From sequence record LR746311: a DNA stretch of 64,000 nucleotides; one strand, 5' to 3'. Below the pieces are notes generated by a model that had not been told where the DNA came from, did no database searches, and was given only the letters and a program-made list of their open reading frames with translations. This stretch comes from Shigella phage vB_SsoM_113. Shown here one piece after another: positions 6,214 through 63,671 of this stretch (its first letter is position 1; the number at the start of each line of letters is the position of its first letter). Made by a program: the position numbers and the translations under genes.

Positions 6214-6482
6214 TGTTTGTTGTTCACACTATTTATGAAAATGAAGGTAATACTACACGTGATTACGGTCACGTAAATCAATTTTTTAGATGTAATCCAG
6301 AATTCCGAGCTCAAAAAGACGAACGAATTTTTAAAAAATGTGTAGAGCAAGGTTTCATTTACGTTAAGCACTGGATGCAAGGAAATAAAGTTAGAACTAC
6401 ATATCATAGGTCTTTGCCTGAGCTTAATGATGAATTGATTTATAATAGAGCTGTAAACCAAACCTTGAAGGATGAGCAATGA
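6213..6482 (+). CDS. hypothetical early protein (89 aa)
   Basis: ORF track; overlaps the start of the ligase gene (ATGA). Confidence 0.5.
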   Translation: MFVVHTIYENEGNTTRDYGHVNQFFRCNPEFRAQKDERIFKKCVEQGFIYVKHWMQGNKVRTTYHRSLPELNDELIYNRAVNQTLKDEQ

Positions 6483-7939
6483 TTCTTAAAATTCTGAATG
6501 AAATAGCATCTATTGGATCAACTAAGCAGAAGCAAGCAATTCTTGAAAAGAATAAAGATAATGAATTGCTTAAACGAGTATATCGTCTGACTTATTCTCG
6601 TGGGTTACAGTATTATATCAAGAAATGGCCTAAACCTGGTATTGCTACCCAGAGTTTTGGAATGCTGACTATTACCGATATGCTTGACTTCATTGAATTC
6701 ACGTTAGCTACTCGGAAATTGACTGGAAATGCTGCAATTGAGGAATTAACTGGATATATCACTGATGGTAAAAAGGATGATGTTGAAGTTTTGCGTCGAG
6801 TGATGATGCGAGATCTTGAATGCGGTGCTTCAGTATCTATTGCAAATAAAGTTTGGCCAGGTTTAATTCCTGAACAACCTCAAATGTTGGCAAGTTCTTA
6901 TGATGAAAAAGGCATTAGTAAGAATATCAAATTTCCAGCCTTTGCACAGTTAAAAGCAGATGGAGCTCGGTGTTTTGCTGAAGTCCGAGGCGATGAATTA
7001 GATGATGTTCGTCTTTTATCACGAGCTGGTAATGAATATCTAGGATTAGATCTTCTTAAGGAAGAGTTAATCAAAATGACCGCTGAAGCTCGCCAGATTC
7101 ATCCAGAAGGCGTGTTAATTGATGGCGAATTGGTATACCATGAGCAAGTTGAAAAAGAGCCAGAAGGCCTAGATTTTCTTTTTGATGCTCCTGAAATCAG
7201 TAAAGCTAAAGAGTTTTCCGAAGTAGCTGAATCACGTACTGCTTCTAATGGAATTGCCAATAAATCTTTAAAGGGAACTATTTCAGAAAAAGAAGCTCAA
7301 TGTATGAAGTTTCAGGTCTGGGATTATGTCCCGTTAGTAGAAATATACGGTCTTCCAGCATTTCGTTTGAAGTATGATGTACGTTTTTCTAAACTAGAAC
7401 AAATGACATCAGGATATGATAAAGTAATTTTAATTGAAAACCAGATAGTAAATAACCTAGATGAAGCTAAGGTAATTTATAAAAAGTATATTGACCAAGG
7501 TCTTGAAGGTATTATTCTCAAAAATATCGATGGATTATGGGAAAATTCTCGTTCAAAAAATCTCTATAAATTTAAAGAAGTAATTGATGTTGATTTAAAA
7601 ATTGTAGGAATTTATCCTCACCGTAAAGACCCTACTAAAGCAGGTGGATTTATTCTTGAATCAGAGTGTGGAAAAATTAAAGTAAATGCTGGGTCAGGCT
7701 TAAAAGATAAAGCCGGTGTAAAATCGCATGAACTTGACCGTACTCGCATTATGGAAAACCAAAATTATTATATTGGAAAAATTCTAGAGTGCGAATGCAA
7801 TGGTTGGTTAAAATCTGATGGCCGCACTGATTACGTTAAATTATTTCTTCCGATTGCGATTCGTTTACGTGAAGATAAAACTAAAGCTAATACATTCGAG
7901 GATGTATTTGGTGATTTTCATGAGGTAACTGGTCTATGA
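6479..7939 (+). CDS. 30: ATP-dependent DNA ligase
   Basis: 486 aa; adenylation motif KADGARCF; N-terminus MILKILNEIASIGSTKQKQAILEKNKDNELLKRVY matches T4 DNA ligase as recalled. Confidence 0.97.
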   Translation: MILKILNEIASIGSTKQKQAILEKNKDNELLKRVYRLTYSRGLQYYIKKWPKPGIATQSFGMLTITDMLDFIEFTLATRKLTGNAAIEELTGYITDGKKDDVEVLRRVMMRDLECGASVSIANKVWPGLIPEQPQMLASSYDEKGISKNIKFPAFAQLKADGARCFAEVRGDELDDVRLLSRAGNEYLGLDLLKEELIKMTAEARQIHPEGVLIDGELVYHEQVEKEPEGLDFLFDAPEISKAKEFSEVAESRTASNGIANKSLKGTISEKEAQCMKFQVWDYVPLVEIYGLPAFRLKYDVRFSKLEQMTSGYDKVILIENQIVNNLDEAKVIYKKYIDQGLEGIILKNIDGLWENSRSKNLYKFKEVIDVDLKIVGIYPHRKDPTKAGGFILESECGKIKVNAGSGLKDKAGVKSHELDRTRIMENQNYYIGKILECECNGWLKSDGRTDYVKLFLPIAIRLREDKTKANTFEDVFGDFHEVTGL

Positions 7940-8124
7940 AAGCTTACTTAGAAACAATTGTCGTGGCTCAAAAAGAAGGTGGAGATGTTTCTACTTCTGT
8001 ATCACAAATTATGATTGAATTTATAGATGCATATGCTTATAATAAATTCACAGAAACATTTGATACCTATGAAAAAGGTCCAAAGTTTGAAATATATCGT
8101 ACTCTCTTACCAATAGATTATTAA
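7936..8124 (+). CDS. hypothetical protein (62 aa)
   Basis: ORF track; start overlaps the ligase stop; followed by a hairpin terminator. Confidence 0.45.
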   Translation: MKAYLETIVVAQKEGGDVSTSVSQIMIEFIDAYAYNKFTETFDTYEKGPKFEIYRTLLPIDY

Positions 8125-8147
8125 AGGCCTTCGGGCCTTTAATTTTA
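8123..8147 (+). terminator. stem-loop terminator
   Basis: AAAGGCC-TTCG-GGCCTTT followed by AATTTTA. Confidence 0.5.
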
Positions 8148-8176
8148 TAAATAGAATAAACACTAGAGAGGATATG

Positions 8177-10270
8177 ATGGAACTCATTACAGAATTATTT
8201 GACGAAGATACTACTCTTCCGATTACAAACTTAAATCCAAAGAAGAAAATACCGCAAATTTTTTCAGTTCATGTTGATGACGCAATTGAACAACCAGGTT
8301 TTCGTTTATGTACCTATACATCTGGAGGTGATACTAATCGCGATTTAAAAATGGGCGATAAAATGATGCATATTGTTCCTTTTACATTAACTGCTAAAGG
8401 TTCAATTGCTAAATTAAAAGGTCTCGGTCCAAGCCCAATTAATTACATCAATTCAGTTTTTACTGTTGCGATGCAGACGATGCGTCAGTATAAAATTGAT
8501 GCATGTATGCTCCGTATTCTTAAGTCTAAAACTGCTGGTCAAGCTCGTCAAATTCAACTTATTGCTGATAGACTTATCCGTAGTCGTTCAGGTGGCAGAT
8601 ACGTCCTTCTTAAGGAACTCTGGGATTATGATAAAAAGTATGCATATATTCTTATACATCGCAAAAATGTATCATTAGAAGACATTCCAGGAGTTCCAGA
8701 AATTAGTACCGAGCTCTTTACTAAAGTTGAATCGAAGGTCGGTGATGTTTATATCAATAAAGATACTGGAGCTCAAGTAACTAAAAATGAGGCAATTGCT
8801 GCATCTATTGCGCAAGAAAATGATAAACGTTCTGACCAAGCGGTAATCGTTAAAGTTAAAATTTCCCGTAGAGCAATTGCACAAAGTCAGTCATTGGAAT
8901 CTTCTAGATTTGAAAGTGAATTATTCCAGAAGTATGAATCTACCGCAGCTAATTTCAATAAACCTGCTACAGCTCCTTTAATTCCCGAAGCAGAAGAAAT
9001 GAAGCTTGGAATTAATTCATTAGCTTCTAAAACTAAGGCAGCAAAAATTATTGCTGAAGGAACTGCAGATGAACTTCATTATGACTATAAATTCTTTTCA
9101 AAAAGTGAGGTTAATGAAGTTTCTGAAAAAATTAAAGATGTAATTCTTAATGCGATTAAAAATGAACCAACTACTTCAATAAAATGTTTAGAGAAATACG
9201 CAGCAGCTGTTAATCAATTATTTGAAGAATATAAAGATAACTGGCTTGATAAACATAATAAAACTCGTAAAGGACAAACAGATGAAGTCTGGGAAGAAAT
9301 AACTAAAAATTCCTGGAACGCAGCAAAAACTAAATTCCTCAAACGAATGATTTATAGCTTTTCCGGAATTGGTGCAGGTCCAATGATTGATATTACTATT
9401 GCCCGTGATGGTTCTAAATATACTCCATCACAAAAGCGCGGCATTAGAGAGTATTGTGGTTCAGGATATACTGACATCAATAATCTTCTTTTGGGTCGTT
9501 ACAATCCAGAACGATATGATGTAATGAGTGAAAAAGAAATTGAATCTGCTATAAATAACTTAGATTCAGCTTTTGAAAACGGTGACCGTATACCAGAAGG
9601 CATTACAGTTTATCGTGCTCAAAGCATGACTGCTCCTATATACGAAGCATTAGTTAAAAATAAAGTATTCTATTTCAGAAATTTTGTATCTACTTCTTTA
9701 ACTCCTATCATTTTTGGACGTTTTGGAATTACACATGCTGGTATTGGTCTTTTAGAACCAGAAGCTCGTAATGAATTGACAGTTGATAAAAATGAAGAAG
9801 GAATAACTATTAATCCAAACGAAATAAGAGCATATAAAGAAAATCCTGAATACGTTAAAGTTCAAATAGGATGGGCAATTGATGGAGCTCATAAAGTTAA
9901 TGTTGTATATCCAGGAAGTCTCGGAATAGCAACAGAAGCTGAAGTTATTCTACCACGCGGATTGATGGTCAAAGTTAATAAAATAACTGATGCTTCTAAT
10001 AATGACGGAACAACATCTAATAATACAAAACTCATTCAAGCTGAAGTTATGACTACGGAAGAACTCACCGAATCAGTAATTTATGACGGTGATCGTCTAA
10101 TGGAAACTGGTGAAGTAGTTGCAATGACAGGTGATATTGAAATAGAAGACAGAGTTGATTTTGCATCATTTGTTTCATCAAATGTTAAACAAAAAGTAGA
10201 ATCATCTCTTGGAATTATTGCGTCTTGCATAGATATTGCAAACATGCCTTACAAGTTCGTTCAAGGATAA
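8177..10270 (+). CDS. alt: Alt-type ADP-ribosyltransferase (head-packaged, injected)
   Basis: About 697 aa; N-terminus MELITELFD; C-terminal ART-like motifs (TVYRAQ, FVSTSL, EAEVILPRG). The track starts one ATG earlier (8174). Confidence 0.9.
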   Translation: MELITELFDEDTTLPITNLNPKKKIPQIFSVHVDDAIEQPGFRLCTYTSGGDTNRDLKMGDKMMHIVPFTLTAKGSIAKLKGLGPSPINYINSVFTVAMQTMRQYKIDACMLRILKSKTAGQARQIQLIADRLIRSRSGGRYVLLKELWDYDKKYAYILIHRKNVSLEDIPGVPEISTELFTKVESKVGDVYINKDTGAQVTKNEAIAASIAQENDKRSDQAVIVKVKISRRAIAQSQSLESSRFESELFQKYESTAANFNKPATAPLIPEAEEMKLGINSLASKTKAAKIIAEGTADELHYDYKFFSKSEVNEVSEKIKDVILNAIKNEPTTSIKCLEKYAAAVNQLFEEYKDNWLDKHNKTRKGQTDEVWEEITKNSWNAAKTKFLKRMIYSFSGIGAGPMIDITIARDGSKYTPSQKRGIREYCGSGYTDINNLLLGRYNPERYDVMSEKEIESAINNLDSAFENGDRIPEGITVYRAQSMTAPIYEALVKNKVFYFRNFVSTSLTPIIFGRFGITHAGIGLLEPEARNELTVDKNEEGITINPNEIRAYKENPEYVKVQIGWAIDGAHKVNVVYPGSLGIATEAEVILPRGLMVKVNKITDASNNDGTTSNNTKLIQAEVMTTEELTESVIYDGDRLMETGEVVAMTGDIEIEDRVDFASFVSSNVKQKVESSLGIIASCIDIANMPYKFVQG

Positions 10271-10273
10271 ATC

Positions 10274-12331
10274 ATGGAACTTATTACAGAATTATTTGAC
10301 GGCGCTTCGGCGCCGGTTGTTAACTTAAATCCTAAGCATAAAATACCTCAAATTTTTGCTATTCAAGCCGGTGAAGAAAGCGTGCTTCCTGGATTTAGAT
10401 TTTGTACATACACCTCTGGTGGTGATACAAATAAAAACGTTAAGCCAGGCGATAAAATGATGCATATCGTAATGATAGGTGTCAATGAGAAACTATCATT
10501 AGTTAAACTTAAAAACTTGGGTGGAAATCCAATTGGTGTCATTAATGCCGTTTTTGATACTGCTCTTCAAACAATGAAACAGTATAAAATTGACGCATGC
10601 CTATTCCGCGTACTAAAGAGTAAAACAAATGGCGCAGCTCGTCAAATGCAAGTTATTGCTGACCGTTTAGTACGTACTAAAGGAGCAGGTCGATATGTTC
10701 TTTTAAAAGAAATCTGGGATTATGATAAAAAGTATGCATATATTATGGTTTACCGTAAAAATGCCAATTTAGAAGACATTCCAGGTGTACCTCCTATTTC
10801 AACTGAGTTATTCACAAAAGTTGAATCAAAGGTTGGTGATGTTTATGTAGATGTTAAAACAGGTAATGCTGTTCCTAAAGCCGTTGCTGTGGCTGCTTCT
10901 ATTGCTTTAGAAAATGATAAGCGCACGGATCAAGCTGTTATTCAGAAAACTAAAATTAGCCGTCGATTAGCAGCACAAGCTCAATATTCTACTGTCGATG
11001 CTTCACTTCAGGGTGATAGCTTCGCTGCCAAGAAATATCAAGAGTTTGAATCTAAAGTTCCGGTATATAAAGCAGAAGGACCAATGAACTCTGGTGTTAT
11101 TCAGATTGGTTCCAACTTCAGCAAAGGAGCTATCGGTGGTATGAGAAGTGCTTCTCGTTTTAAATCTAACGATTATGAACTAGAAAGCTTCCGAAATCAT
11201 ATTGCATTGGCCCATGCACGTTTACGTGATCCGTCTATCAGACTGCAGAGCGATATAACATATCAAGGTTCTCAAGAATATTTAAAGAATAAAGAATTTT
11301 TTGATTATAAAACCGATAAAATTTTGAGCGATCTCGCTGACATTAATATTTCTAATAGCTTTGATGTTATTAAGAAAATTGTCAATGATTTAGTTAAAGG
11401 TTCTAAAGCCGCACCAGACGAAAAGGTAGCTATTATTCAATTTGTCATGAATAGCATTTATAAATTGATTAATGAATCTGCTGCTCAGGCATATGAATAC
11501 GCAAGCACCGAAGTAACTCCAAAAGGATTAACTCAGTCTGAGTCTGATGTAATTGAAGATTATTGTGCAGATTCATATGTTGAAATGAACTCGTTCCTCT
11601 TGGGTAAACCAGATTCTACCCGTGAAGAATACATGGAACGAGCTATTAAACACATCGAGACGCTGGATTCTGCATTCGCCAAAGGATCAGTTCTTCCTCC
11701 AGGAACTACGCTTTATCGTGGGCAAGAAGTTACTTTTAAAACTTTACGTCATAATATTGAAAATAAAATGTTCTATTTTAAGAACTTCGTATCAACATCG
11801 CTTAAACCAAATATCTTCGGTGAGCATGGTAAAAACTATATGGCTCTAGATGATTCAGGTGCAGTATTTTCTGGTGAAGGAGAAGGTTCTGTTGATGCTG
11901 AAGATTTAATGCATATGGGTAGTCATTCTGCATATGCTAATGAAGATGCTGAAGCTAGCGTAGGTATGGTAATTAAAGGGGCTGAGCGAATCAAAGTTAT
12001 CGTTCCAGGTCATTTATCAGGATTTCCATCAGAAGCTGAAGTTATTCTACCACGTGGAATTTTGTTAAAGATTAATAAAGTAAGCACGTACATGATGAAA
12101 GAAACTGCTTATAACAAGTATCTAATCGAAGGCACAATCGTTCCTCCTTCTGAACAATTAGAAGAATCAGTATATGATGGCGATCATCTAATGGAAACTG
12201 GTGAAGTTCGTCCAATGGCTAGGTTTAATCAATTCCTTGTAGAAGAATCAAAAGAAGAGGAAAACGAAGTTTCTCAAATCTTGGCTTCTTTGGTTAACAT
12301 CAATGGAATGTCTAAAAAGTTCAAGATGTAG
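10274..12331 (+). CDS. second Alt-like ADP-ribosyltransferase (tandem paralogue)
   Basis: 685 aa; N-terminal ~220 aa closely similar to the upstream alt product (MELITELFD..., YKIDAC, GRYVLLKE.WDYDKKYAYI); diverged middle; C-terminal motifs TLYRGQ, FVSTSL, EAEVILPRG. Confidence 0.85.
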   Translation: MELITELFDGASAPVVNLNPKHKIPQIFAIQAGEESVLPGFRFCTYTSGGDTNKNVKPGDKMMHIVMIGVNEKLSLVKLKNLGGNPIGVINAVFDTALQTMKQYKIDACLFRVLKSKTNGAARQMQVIADRLVRTKGAGRYVLLKEIWDYDKKYAYIMVYRKNANLEDIPGVPPISTELFTKVESKVGDVYVDVKTGNAVPKAVAVAASIALENDKRTDQAVIQKTKISRRLAAQAQYSTVDASLQGDSFAAKKYQEFESKVPVYKAEGPMNSGVIQIGSNFSKGAIGGMRSASRFKSNDYELESFRNHIALAHARLRDPSIRLQSDITYQGSQEYLKNKEFFDYKTDKILSDLADINISNSFDVIKKIVNDLVKGSKAAPDEKVAIIQFVMNSIYKLINESAAQAYEYASTEVTPKGLTQSESDVIEDYCADSYVEMNSFLLGKPDSTREEYMERAIKHIETLDSAFAKGSVLPPGTTLYRGQEVTFKTLRHNIENKMFYFKNFVSTSLKPNIFGEHGKNYMALDDSGAVFSGEGEGSVDAEDLMHMGSHSAYANEDAEASVGMVIKGAERIKVIVPGHLSGFPSEAEVILPRGILLKINKVSTYMMKETAYNKYLIEGTIVPPSEQLEESVYDGDHLMETGEVRPMARFNQFLVEESKEEENEVSQILASLVNINGMSKKFKM

Positions 12332-12332
12332 T

Positions 12333-12360
12333 TTACAAGTCCATCGTGTTGTGTTATAAT
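12333..12360 (+). promoter_or_regulatory. early-type promoter
   Basis: GTTTAC, 17-18 nt spacer, TGTTATAAT, upstream of the 12392 ORF. Confidence 0.45.
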
Positions 12361-12391: not shown

Positions 12392-12682
12392 ATGAAATCT
12401 TCTTTACGCTTTTTAGGTCAAGAACTTATAGTTGAAGGCGTTATTCCTGCTGATAATGCTTTTAATGAAGCAGTTTATGATGAATTTATCAAAATTTTTG
12501 GAATAGATAAAAAGTTCGGAATTTTTCCTTCTGAAAATTTTTCAAAGCCAGAGCAGACTGAAAGCATTTTCCAAGGTGTAGTAACAGGTAAATTCGAGTC
12601 AGAAGCTCCGGTAAAAATTGAAGTTTATATTGAAGACAGTTTAGTTGCTTCAGTTGCTGCTTTTATTTCATTCCGTAAATAA
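12392..12682 (+). CDS. hypothetical protein (96 aa)
   Basis: ORF track; RBS GAGGAA upstream; last + strand gene before the convergent late cluster. Confidence 0.5.
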   Translation: MKSSLRFLGQELIVEGVIPADNAFNEAVYDEFIKIFGIDKKFGIFPSENFSKPEQTESIFQGVVTGKFESEAPVKIEVYIEDSLVASVAAFISFRK

Positions 12683-12686
12683 AAAT

Positions 12687-12708
12687 ATGGGGACCAAAAG
12701 GTCCCCAT
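12687..12708. terminator. bidirectional stem-loop terminator between convergent transcription units
   Basis: ATGGGGACC-AAAA-GGTCCCCAT located between the + strand ORF ending at 12682 and the gp54 stop at 12711. Confidence 0.55.
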
Positions 12709-12710
12709 TG

Positions 12711-13676
12711 TTATATTGCTCCTAATATTTTACTTTGCGAATTGACAATTCCCGTCATAGTATTAATGTTTGAAATGCTTCCAGCAGTTCCCCCTAATCT
12801 ACTAAGTCGTGAAAGCGAATTAGATAATCCAGTAACACCTCCACTATTTCCGAGAACGCTTTGAATGCCATTTATAGCAGCAGATTCAAGCCACTCAAGC
12901 GCAGCTTGTCTATCAACTGACCCAGCTTGCATGACTCTATACGCAAAAGTAACATCAAATGTAGTTATTTGGTTATCTCCATCATATGATAACTCAGGAG
13001 CGCTCACTGACACTGGAATGCATCCGGTGAACATCACTGCAGTATGAGGTAATCCATTACGAGCATGAAGATTAACCTGAATATCTGCCTCGACATCTTG
13101 TGGCAAAGCGCGCAGTCCAGTTACTGGGTCTTGAACAGCGTTAACCCAGTCTTGCATTGCACGATAGTTACAAGCTTCTGAATCCATTCTAAATGAAATA
13201 ACCAAAGGGTCTAATTCTCTCCCAGTTATACGAATATTAGGAGAGTTATAGTTCCAGTCAGTTTCATAGGATAATCTATTCTCTGGCATTTTTACAGAAT
13301 ATATCATCAATCCAGACGAGTTATATGCCATGTTAAAGAAGTCAATTAAATATGTACCGACGGTAAATGAGCCCAATAAACTTTGAACTGTACGTTGACT
13401 CATGGCACCAATAAGATATTTACTAACCCCTGATTTTCTTATCAGTTTTTGTGTGCCAGCAGTAATTAGCGTGGTAATTCCCTGATTAATATCGCCTTGA
13501 GACAATCCTAACCAGTCTGAATTTAAACCCAAATTATTATAAGAAAAGTTGCTAATTGAACTTATCAACGAAGAGCTTTTAGTTGATGGAGTTGTCGCAA
13601 AAACACAGCTAAACATATTATTACGTTGAAAATCTGCGTTTATTGCTTGATTATTAAATTCCTCTAAAGAATACAT
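12711..13676 (-). CDS. 54: baseplate tail-tube initiator gp54
   Basis: 321 aa; length and gene order (54-48-29-28-27-51) match T4. Confidence 0.88.
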   Translation of the reverse strand: MYSLEEFNNQAINADFQRNNMFSCVFATTPSTKSSSLISSISNFSYNNLGLNSDWLGLSQGDINQGITTLITAGTQKLIRKSGVSKYLIGAMSQRTVQSLLGSFTVGTYLIDFFNMAYNSSGLMIYSVKMPENRLSYETDWNYNSPNIRITGRELDPLVISFRMDSEACNYRAMQDWVNAVQDPVTGLRALPQDVEADIQVNLHARNGLPHTAVMFTGCIPVSVSAPELSYDGDNQITTFDVTFAYRVMQAGSVDRQAALEWLESAAINGIQSVLGNSGGVTGLSNSLSRLSRLGGTAGSISNINTMTGIVNSQSKILGAI

Positions 13677-63431: not shown

Positions 63432-63504
63432 TGGGAATTAGCCAAGTTGGTAAGGCATAGCACTTTGACTGCTAGATGCAAAGGTTCGAGTCCTTTATTC
63501 CCAG
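63432..63504 (+). tRNA. tRNA-Gln (anticodon TTG)
   Basis: Cloverleaf: acceptor TGGGAAT/ATTCCCA, anticodon stem TAGCA/TGCTA with loop CTTTGAC, T-arm AAAGG-TTCGAGT-CCTTT; no encoded CCA. Confidence 0.85.
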
Positions 63505-63505
63505 C

Positions 63506-63592
63506 GCGAGAATGGCCAAATTGGTAAAGGCACAGCACTTAAAATGCTGCGGAATGATTTCCTTGTGGGTTCGAGTCCCACTTCTCGCACCA
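63506..63592 (+). tRNA. tRNA-Leu (anticodon TAA), long variable arm
   Basis: Acceptor GCGAGAA/TTCTCGC, anticodon stem CAGCA/TGCTG with loop CTTAAAA, T-arm GTGGG-TTCGAGT-CCCAC, 3' CCA encoded. Confidence 0.85.
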
Positions 63593-63597
63593 AATTT

Positions 63598-63671
<74 letters not shown>

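Follow-up and report, generated by a model that had tools for sequence, protein, structure and literature searches.

The 64,000-nt stretch of Shigella phage vB_SsoM_113 analysed here (sequence record LR746311; hereafter the window) is a segment of a Tequatrovirus (T4-like) genome in which two genes of the Alt type of ADP-ribosyltransferase (ART) lie in tandem; they are named here Alt-A and Alt-B. The corresponding open reading frames (ORFs) were called at 8174-10270 (698 amino acids, aa) and 10274-12331 (685 aa), on the same strand and 3 nt apart. The Alt-A start is most likely the second ATG, at 8177, rather than that at 8174, because T4 and seven relatives are annotated in this way and because the spacing of the GAGG Shine-Dalgarno sequence at 8168-8171 fits (5 nt before 8177, just 2 nt before 8174); the product is then a 697-aa protein beginning with MELITE. 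An initial annotation, made from the letters of the sequence, had proposed a tandem pair of Alt-type ORFs at this place. The proposal is borne out, since a pairwise BLASTP comparison aligns the two proteins over their whole length (E = 4e-157, 41% identity, 57% positives). The features on which the analysis turns are the following.

8177-10270, + strand: Alt-A, 697 aa, positional orthologue of T4 alt (ORF, Pfam, phrog and alignment)
8177-8884, within Alt-A: N domain, aa 1-236; then a variable helical middle (aa 237-412), the ART domain (aa 413-628) and the predicted C-terminal propeptide (aa 633-697), all limits being approximate
10274-12331, + strand: Alt-B, 685 aa, second Alt paralogue (alt.-1 or alt.-2 in GenBank records)
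10274-10978, + strand: Alt-B N domain, aa 1-235
10979-11518, + strand: Alt-B helical middle, aa 236-415
11519-12157, + strand: Alt-B ART domain, aa 416-628
12167-12328, + strand: Alt-B predicted C-terminal propeptide, aa 632-685
10613-10621, + strand: CTAAAGAGT, left copy of an imperfect 9-nt direct repeat, endpoint of the T4-type deletion
12312-12320, + strand: CTAAAAAGT, right copy of the imperfect 9-nt repeat

Identity between Alt-A and Alt-B differs from region to region (N domain 68%, middle 16%, ART 36%, C tail 44%). The claim that the centre and the ART region are diverged thus holds, and the description of the N-termini as near-identical does not: over the N-terminal ~235 aa, identity is 55-82% per 40-aa window. 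The DNA of the two N domains shows just ~70% identity, and recent gene conversion was therefore rejected as an explanation for the shared N-terminus. The strings quoted in the initial annotation (MELITE, FVSTSL, EAEVILPRG and YDGD.LMETGEV) were all found, with YCGSGYTDINNLLLGRY in the first ORF and YCADSYVEMNSFLLGKPD in the second; a further pattern given as shared, ESV.YDGD, is present in the first ORF as ESVIYDGD and absent from the second, which reads EESVYDGD.

The second alt gene in T4 and its relatives

The T4 locus consists of alt (682 aa) followed by alt.-1 (61 aa), alt.-2 (67 aa) and alt.-3, so that the initial annotation had described it correctly as one large alt gene with small alt.-N ORFs; according to the T4 record, alt.-1 and alt.-2 appear to duplicate the beginning of alt. 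The products of these two small ORFs (NP_049810 and NP_049809) align near-perfectly to Alt-B residues 1-55 and 62-118, and the corresponding families phrog_23015 and phrog_15247 are matched better by Alt-B than by Alt-A. T4 DNA is collinear with the window to about 10621 and then again from 12312; the 1,699 bp between CTAAAGAGT and CTAAAAAGT are missing from T4, where ~350 bp of the Alt-B gene are left, frameshifted. Because of the alignment, the break in collinearity and the flanking 9-nt repeats, T4 alt.-1 and alt.-2 are, on comparison of the sequences, a deletion-plus-frameshift remnant of Alt-B. This explanation is simpler than a partial duplication of alt from its start, since the full-length gene is carried by 401 relatives.

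These 401 phage records, which contain the Alt-B cargo region at a coverage of at least 80%, represent ~80% of Tequatrovirus records, and the whole two-gene locus was found in 340 records. The junction of the T4-type deletion is contiguous in 91 of 499 records, comprising many T4 isolates as well as RB55 and RB59. The full-length gene has been deposited under several names: the gene here called Alt-B is named alt.-2 in RB14, RB32 and ime09, where it is full-length, and 'alt.-1' in T2 (94-98% nucleotide identity), elsewhere it is called alt_1/alt_2 or 'Alt-like RNA polymerase ADP-ribosyltransferase (x2)', and PP01 also carries it. T4-like phages with paralogues beside alt, 44RR having a full-length duplicate, have been described (Nolan 2006, PMC1524935). 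Most relatives of T4 thus have two alt genes as their normal arrangement, which has been annotated before; T4 is a deletion variant. The initial annotation had itself allowed that its second ORF might prove to be the standard gene of the relatives, and this is what was found; the unusualness that it implied falls away.

The first gene also differs from its T4 counterpart. Compared with T4 Alt (NP_049811), Alt-A is 99% identical in the N domain, 33% in the middle, 65% in the ART domain and 95% in the C tail, and at the DNA level the flanks of the gene are 92-97% identical and the centre (about 8915-9941) about 72%. Two lengths of the first gene product were seen, 697 aa (T2, RB14, PP01 and ime09) and 682 aa (T4, JoYop and fPS-2), and each of them is found together with full-length Alt-B; at least two alleles therefore circulate. 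Judging from these alignments, the Alt-A of the window is a cargo and catalytic allele different from T4 Alt.

Alt-B is intact at 685 aa in 7 of 7 orthologues. The pairwise ratio of non-synonymous to synonymous substitution rates (dN/dS) is 0.03-0.09 against six relatives (dS 0.07-0.35) and is low in all four regions of the protein. Alt-B is under strong purifying selection and is not decaying. The same tandem pair is held by a more diverged metagenomic locus (L011), in which the first slot is 88% identical to Alt-A in the N domain and 60% in the ART domain, and the second slot is 93% and 73% identical to Alt-B in the same two domains. Given this slot-wise orthology, the duplication is older than the split from L011.

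Catalytic residues and domain organization

Both proteins are matched by Pfam PF03496 (Alt-A 129.3 bits, 1.5e-37; Alt-B 72.8 bits, 3.1e-20), in each case above the gathering score of 23.4 bits, and each aligns along its entire length with phrog_802, 'Alt-like RNA polymerase ADP-ribosyltransferase' (1e-271 for Alt-A and 8.6e-255 for Alt-B). PF26846 Tevenvirinae_ADPRT and PF03496 are precomputed for a protein 98% identical to Alt-B (P0007) and for one of the Alt-A type (P0034); no NCBIfam model matches Alt-A or Alt-B. The catalytic R, STS and ExE residues, on whose presence the initial annotation had let its reading depend, are all present in both ORFs by alignment: Y479-R480, S505-T-S507 and E587-A-E589 in Alt-A, and Y481-R482, S507-T-S509 and E587-A-E589 in Alt-B. 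An alignment of 16 diverse members of the family shows no variation at the YR arginine, the two S-T-S serines or the two E-x-E glutamates. The E-x-E form of the ADP-ribosylating turn-turn (ARTT) loop goes with arginine specificity. The loop before ExE reads GFPSEAE in Alt-B, GIATEAE in Alt-A and APSNEME in T4 Alt; the Alt-B loop contains an aromatic residue, as does the aligned YPGQYE of C3cer.

A phmmer search of the PDB with Alt-B gave no match, and C3-like toxins were reached by the family profile alone, in which YR is aligned with YR, and ExE with Q/ExE, of C3-like and BECa toxins. The AlphaFold2 model of Alt-B has a mean predicted local distance difference test (pLDDT) score of 76.7, with the ART region mostly at 62-92 per 10-residue block, and consists of an alpha/beta N domain (residues ~12-225), an all-helical middle (230-415) and the ART domain (416-628). 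When this model was searched with Foldseek, Vis, Certhrax, C3, Vip2, CDTa and Ia were matched (E from 1.8e-07 to 1e-04, probability 1.0). No solved structure of T4 Alt turned up. The E577A mutant of T4 Alt is catalytically dead (PMC11404850), and E577 lies in or next to the T4 Alt ExE motif that is aligned with E587-A-E589 of Alt-B. That Alt-A and Alt-B are intact Alt-family R-S-E ADP-ribosyltransferases is supported at the sequence level.

Expression signals, gp21 motifs and the N domain

The signals and neighbouring genes around the pair are as follows.

6479-7939, + strand: DNA ligase (gene 30)
7936-8124, + strand: alt.1, 62 aa, ORF between the ligase gene and the Alt pair, position as in T4 (Pfam PF24647 Phage_blade, 5.4e-29)
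8123-8140, + strand: GC-rich hairpin AAAGGCC-TTCG-GGCCTTT followed by AATTTT, terminator-like, after alt.1, read from the sequence
8146-8153, + strand: TATAAATA, late promoter box of the T4 type, 31 nt before the Alt-A start
10258-10276, + strand: Alt-A/Alt-B junction CAAGGATAAATCATG, with an AAGGA ribosome-binding site in the last Alt-A codons, TAA, 3 nt and ATG
12332-12360, + strand: TTTACA-17-TATAAT plus extended -10 TG, sigma-70-like promoter immediately behind the Alt-B stop and ahead of alt.-3 (consensus match, best score 11/12)
12392-12682, + strand: alt.-3, 96 aa, DUF5498 (Pfam PF17602, 2.5e-63)
12687-12708, both strands: bidirectional intrinsic-terminator-like hairpin between alt.-3 and the gp54 gene, 9-bp stem with 6 GC pairs
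12711-13676, - strand: gp54 gene, convergent

The late promoter box TATAAATA occurs 25 times in the window, against 9.5 matches expected. It is located at -29 to -36 relative to the first alt gene in T4, ime09, T2, RB14, JoYop, PP01 and teqskov, as well as in the distant metagenomic locus L011. The hairpin preceding it (8123-8140) was not listed by a terminator consensus scan, and the fPS-2 record gives its counterpart as a terminator; a terminator predicted ahead of alt is conserved in 5 of 6 T4-like genomes (Nolan 2006, PMC1524935). An internal copy of TATAAATA at 9550-9557, 1,373 nt into Alt-A, was considered as a late promoter for Alt-B itself and rejected because it is not conserved (present in ime09, T2 and RB14, absent from PP01, teqskov and JoYop). 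The junction between the two genes is identical in seven Tequatrovirus loci and almost so in L011. We infer that Alt-B is expressed late by read-through and translational coupling, because the 3-nt junction is invariant.

The initial annotation had also suggested that the MELITE N-terminus is processed by the prohead protease gp21, and this agrees with the published cleavage of T4 Alt, which is cut by gp21 after ITE-6 and LTE-619 to yield a protein of 68.2 kDa (PMC5694885); translation of T4 Alt in the present analysis gives the same mature mass. Both motifs are kept in both ORFs at positions homologous to the T4 Alt sites, the second being ~55-65 residues from the C-terminus. The predicted sites are ITE-6 and LTE-632 in Alt-A, giving a mature protein of 70.1 kDa, and ITE-6 and LEE-631 in Alt-B, giving one of 69.1 kDa. 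The sole disordered segments of the Alt-B model, residues 1-11 and 629-685, correspond to the two predicted propeptides. About 40 copies of T4 Alt are present in the head and are injected with the DNA (PMC9026906), and its targets include RNA polymerase alpha and other host proteins, according to the citation of Depping 2005 in PMC5512222. By analogy with T4 Alt, there is good reason to expect that Alt-B would be packaged and injected as well.

Two proteins (P0011 and P0013), encoded by chimeric alt genes at L009 6001-8055 and L010 5001-7061, combine an A-type N domain (94-98% identical) with a B-type cargo (97-98%). On a 65-kb contig, the gene for the first of them is the sole alt gene in the interval from alt.1 to alt.-3. 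Unequal recombination between the N-domain repeats, deleting the Alt-A cargo, would yield a chimera of this type. Together, the T4 deletion and the chimeras point to either enzyme being dispensable on its own, and the exchange suggests a modular, interchangeable N domain. When modelled alone, the N domain obtains a pLDDT of 84.6 and a predicted template modelling score of 0.83, and among predicted viral structures it strongly matches other Alt N domains. No match to the N domain was found in the Pfam copy used, which lacks PF26846, at E values up to 5, and a search of a set of 5.8 billion proteins returned 6 matches, a number that says little about cargo diversity. The N-domain fold recurs in addition at the N-terminal end of large uncharacterised proteins from phages of Erwinia, Dickeya, Vibrio and Agrobacterium (E from 1e-9 to 1e-4, template modelling score ~0.5), some of which are named zeta-toxin, deaminase or ParB/Srx domain proteins; these matches hint that it may be a general carrier of injected cargo.

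As to the surroundings of the pair, the start of alt.1 overlaps the ligase stop by 4 nt, and the terminator-like hairpin comes next. Downstream, alt.-3 has a strong sigma-70-like promoter of its own, as judged from the consensus match. In T4, C-terminal read-through extensions of Alt.-3 block CmdA degradation, which results in escape from the CmdTAC defence (PMC11618068). The minus-strand baseplate and tail genes 54, 48 and 29 come after alt.-3 in convergent orientation, and the fPS-2 record marks the counterparts of the hairpin between alt.-3 and the gp54 gene as terminators. At the end of the window (63432-63671) there are three clustered tRNA genes (Gln-TTG, Leu-TAA and Gly-TCC), which resemble the beginning of a tRNA cluster of the T4 type.

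Interpretation and comparison with known systems

We consider it likely that the pair is the standard Tequatrovirus two-gene alt locus, derived from an ancient tandem duplication and encoding modular arginine-specific mono-ADP-ribosyltransferases which would be expressed late, packaged, trimmed and injected, and which probably have different targets. Each protein would comprise four parts: (i) a 6-residue propeptide with the Alt N domain of ~235 aa, (ii) a variable helical middle, (iii) an ART domain of the C3/VIP2 type and (iv) a C-terminal propeptide of ~55-65 residues. The observed signals are consistent with one late transcription unit starting from the TATAAATA box at 8146, in which Alt-B would be translationally coupled to Alt-A. 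Both proteins would enter the prohead core, where gp21 is predicted to trim them at the motifs given above, and would then be ejected with the DNA, so that arginines of host proteins would be ADP-ribosylated at the very start of infection, as expected from T4 Alt. The target sets of the two enzymes probably differ, because their middles are unalignable and because the insert between S-T-S and E-x-E and the loop before ExE are different. In the T4 reference, Alt-B was lost by the 1,699-bp deletion between the 9-nt repeats together with a frameshift, and in other phages the Alt-A cargo appears to have been lost by recombination between the two N-domain repeats. The reading given in the initial annotation (a pair of ARTs whose catalytic halves have diverged and which are probably packaged and act on different targets) is reasonable and, as far as the sequences go, partly supported.

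Several points weigh against parts of this interpretation. There is no late promoter box directly upstream of Alt-B; no virion proteomics of any two-gene phage was found in the literature, and the packaging, cleavage and injection of Alt-B are proposed by analogy; the chimeric single-gene loci come from Logan metagenome assemblies and could be assembly artefacts; the numbering of the published E577 is off by one with respect to the RefSeq T4 Alt, which reads E574-M-E576 followed by V577 (L001 7455-9503, minus strand); and differing sequence need not mean differing targets, enzyme assays being published for T4 Alt only. The first two of these points would fit an Alt-B that is an active ART but stays unpackaged, acting in the producing cell late in infection, much as the unpackaged ModA and ModB of T4 act once they have been synthesised, with an N domain that serves some role other than head targeting. 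Such a protein would hardly be expected to keep the exact MELITE N-terminus and an L-x-E at the position of the C-terminal gp21 site of T4 Alt (PMC5694885), nor to be encoded 3 nt downstream of a late-promoted gene for a packaged protein, across an invariant coupling junction, and natural chimeras exchange the N domain between Alt-A and Alt-B cargos; we regard this alternative as unlikely.

Redundancy of the two enzymes is improbable too. Alt-A and Alt-B might share their main targets, for example RNA polymerase alpha, the second copy serving only for dosage or robustness, which would make its harmless loss from T4 understandable; it is missing from T4 and 90 other records, alt is non-essential in T4 (PMC9026906), and the catalytic set and the N domain are common to both proteins. 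Yet the low identity in the middle (16%) and ART (36%) regions and the difference between the GFPSEAE and GIATEAE loops argue against shared targets, and both genes have been kept distinct under strong purifying selection since before the L011 split, which is unusual for pure redundancy. As for a decaying duplicate, a pseudogene in the making, it is the fragments of T4 and fPS-2, the only form of the gene in these two phages and labelled 'old duplication' and 'putative pseudogene', that bring it to mind. It was rejected, and seems to us extremely improbable, since dN/dS stays at 0.03-0.09 in every region, no catalytic residue varies and the gene, carried by 401 records, is intact at 685 aa at every full-length locus examined.

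The interpretation as a late-expressed, packaged pair can be taken further, although here our confidence is only tentative. Alt-B may be a second packaged and injected ART whose targets differ from those of T4 Alt, perhaps a protein of host defence or of the stress response in place of RNA polymerase; the PF26846 N domain may be an interchangeable head-delivery module, and alt a polymorphic 'cargo cassette' locus. If this is true, about four-fifths of the Tequatroviruses hold a first-minute host-takeover effector that was missed by half a century of work on T4. As a sequence feature the gene pair is already known, being deposited and named in hundreds of phage genomes. The sole point of interest left is Alt-B as an apparently uncharacterised enzyme as far as experiments go, for which new host targets are conceivable: no functional study of this paralogue was found in the literature on alt.-1, alt.-2, gpAlt and Alt-like proteins, and PMC13119998 contains no whole-word mention of Alt. 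Note that T4 is atypical at this locus, so that what has been concluded about 'the' injected ART of T-even phages derives from a strain without one of the two enzymes; moreover, the catalytic half of the Alt-A allele found here and in T2 and RB14 is just 33-65% identical to the T4 Alt that was studied.

Among known proteins, T4 Alt, an NAD(+)--arginine ADP-ribosyltransferase that is packaged in the head and injected, is the closest point of comparison. Alt-A resembles it in its flanks (gene 30 and alt.1), its late promoter, its gp21 motifs and its R/STS/ExE set; Alt-B has the whole four-part architecture and all the motifs of T4 Alt, with identities of 16% in the middle and 35% in the ART domain. 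ModA and ModB, the unpackaged early ARTs of T4, fall into the same clade of phage R-S-E enzymes and act on host transcription and translation proteins (PMC5512222), but they are single-domain proteins of about 200 aa that are made after infection and have neither the PF26846 N domain nor gp21 sites nor a late promoter. ARTs of the C3/VIP2/iota type (Vis, C3bot, Vip2 and CDTa) share the fold with the Alt proteins, as well as the aromatic-Arg, S-T-S and E-x-E motifs, the last on the ARTT loop, whereas sequence identity is just 14-20%. Unlike these toxins, the Alt proteins have an additional phage-specific N domain, a helical middle and two propeptides predicted here to be removed by protease. 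Delivery differs as well: toxins of the C3/VIP2/iota type use a B-component or a secretion system, whereas Alt delivery, as known for T4 Alt, proceeds through the phage head and tail.

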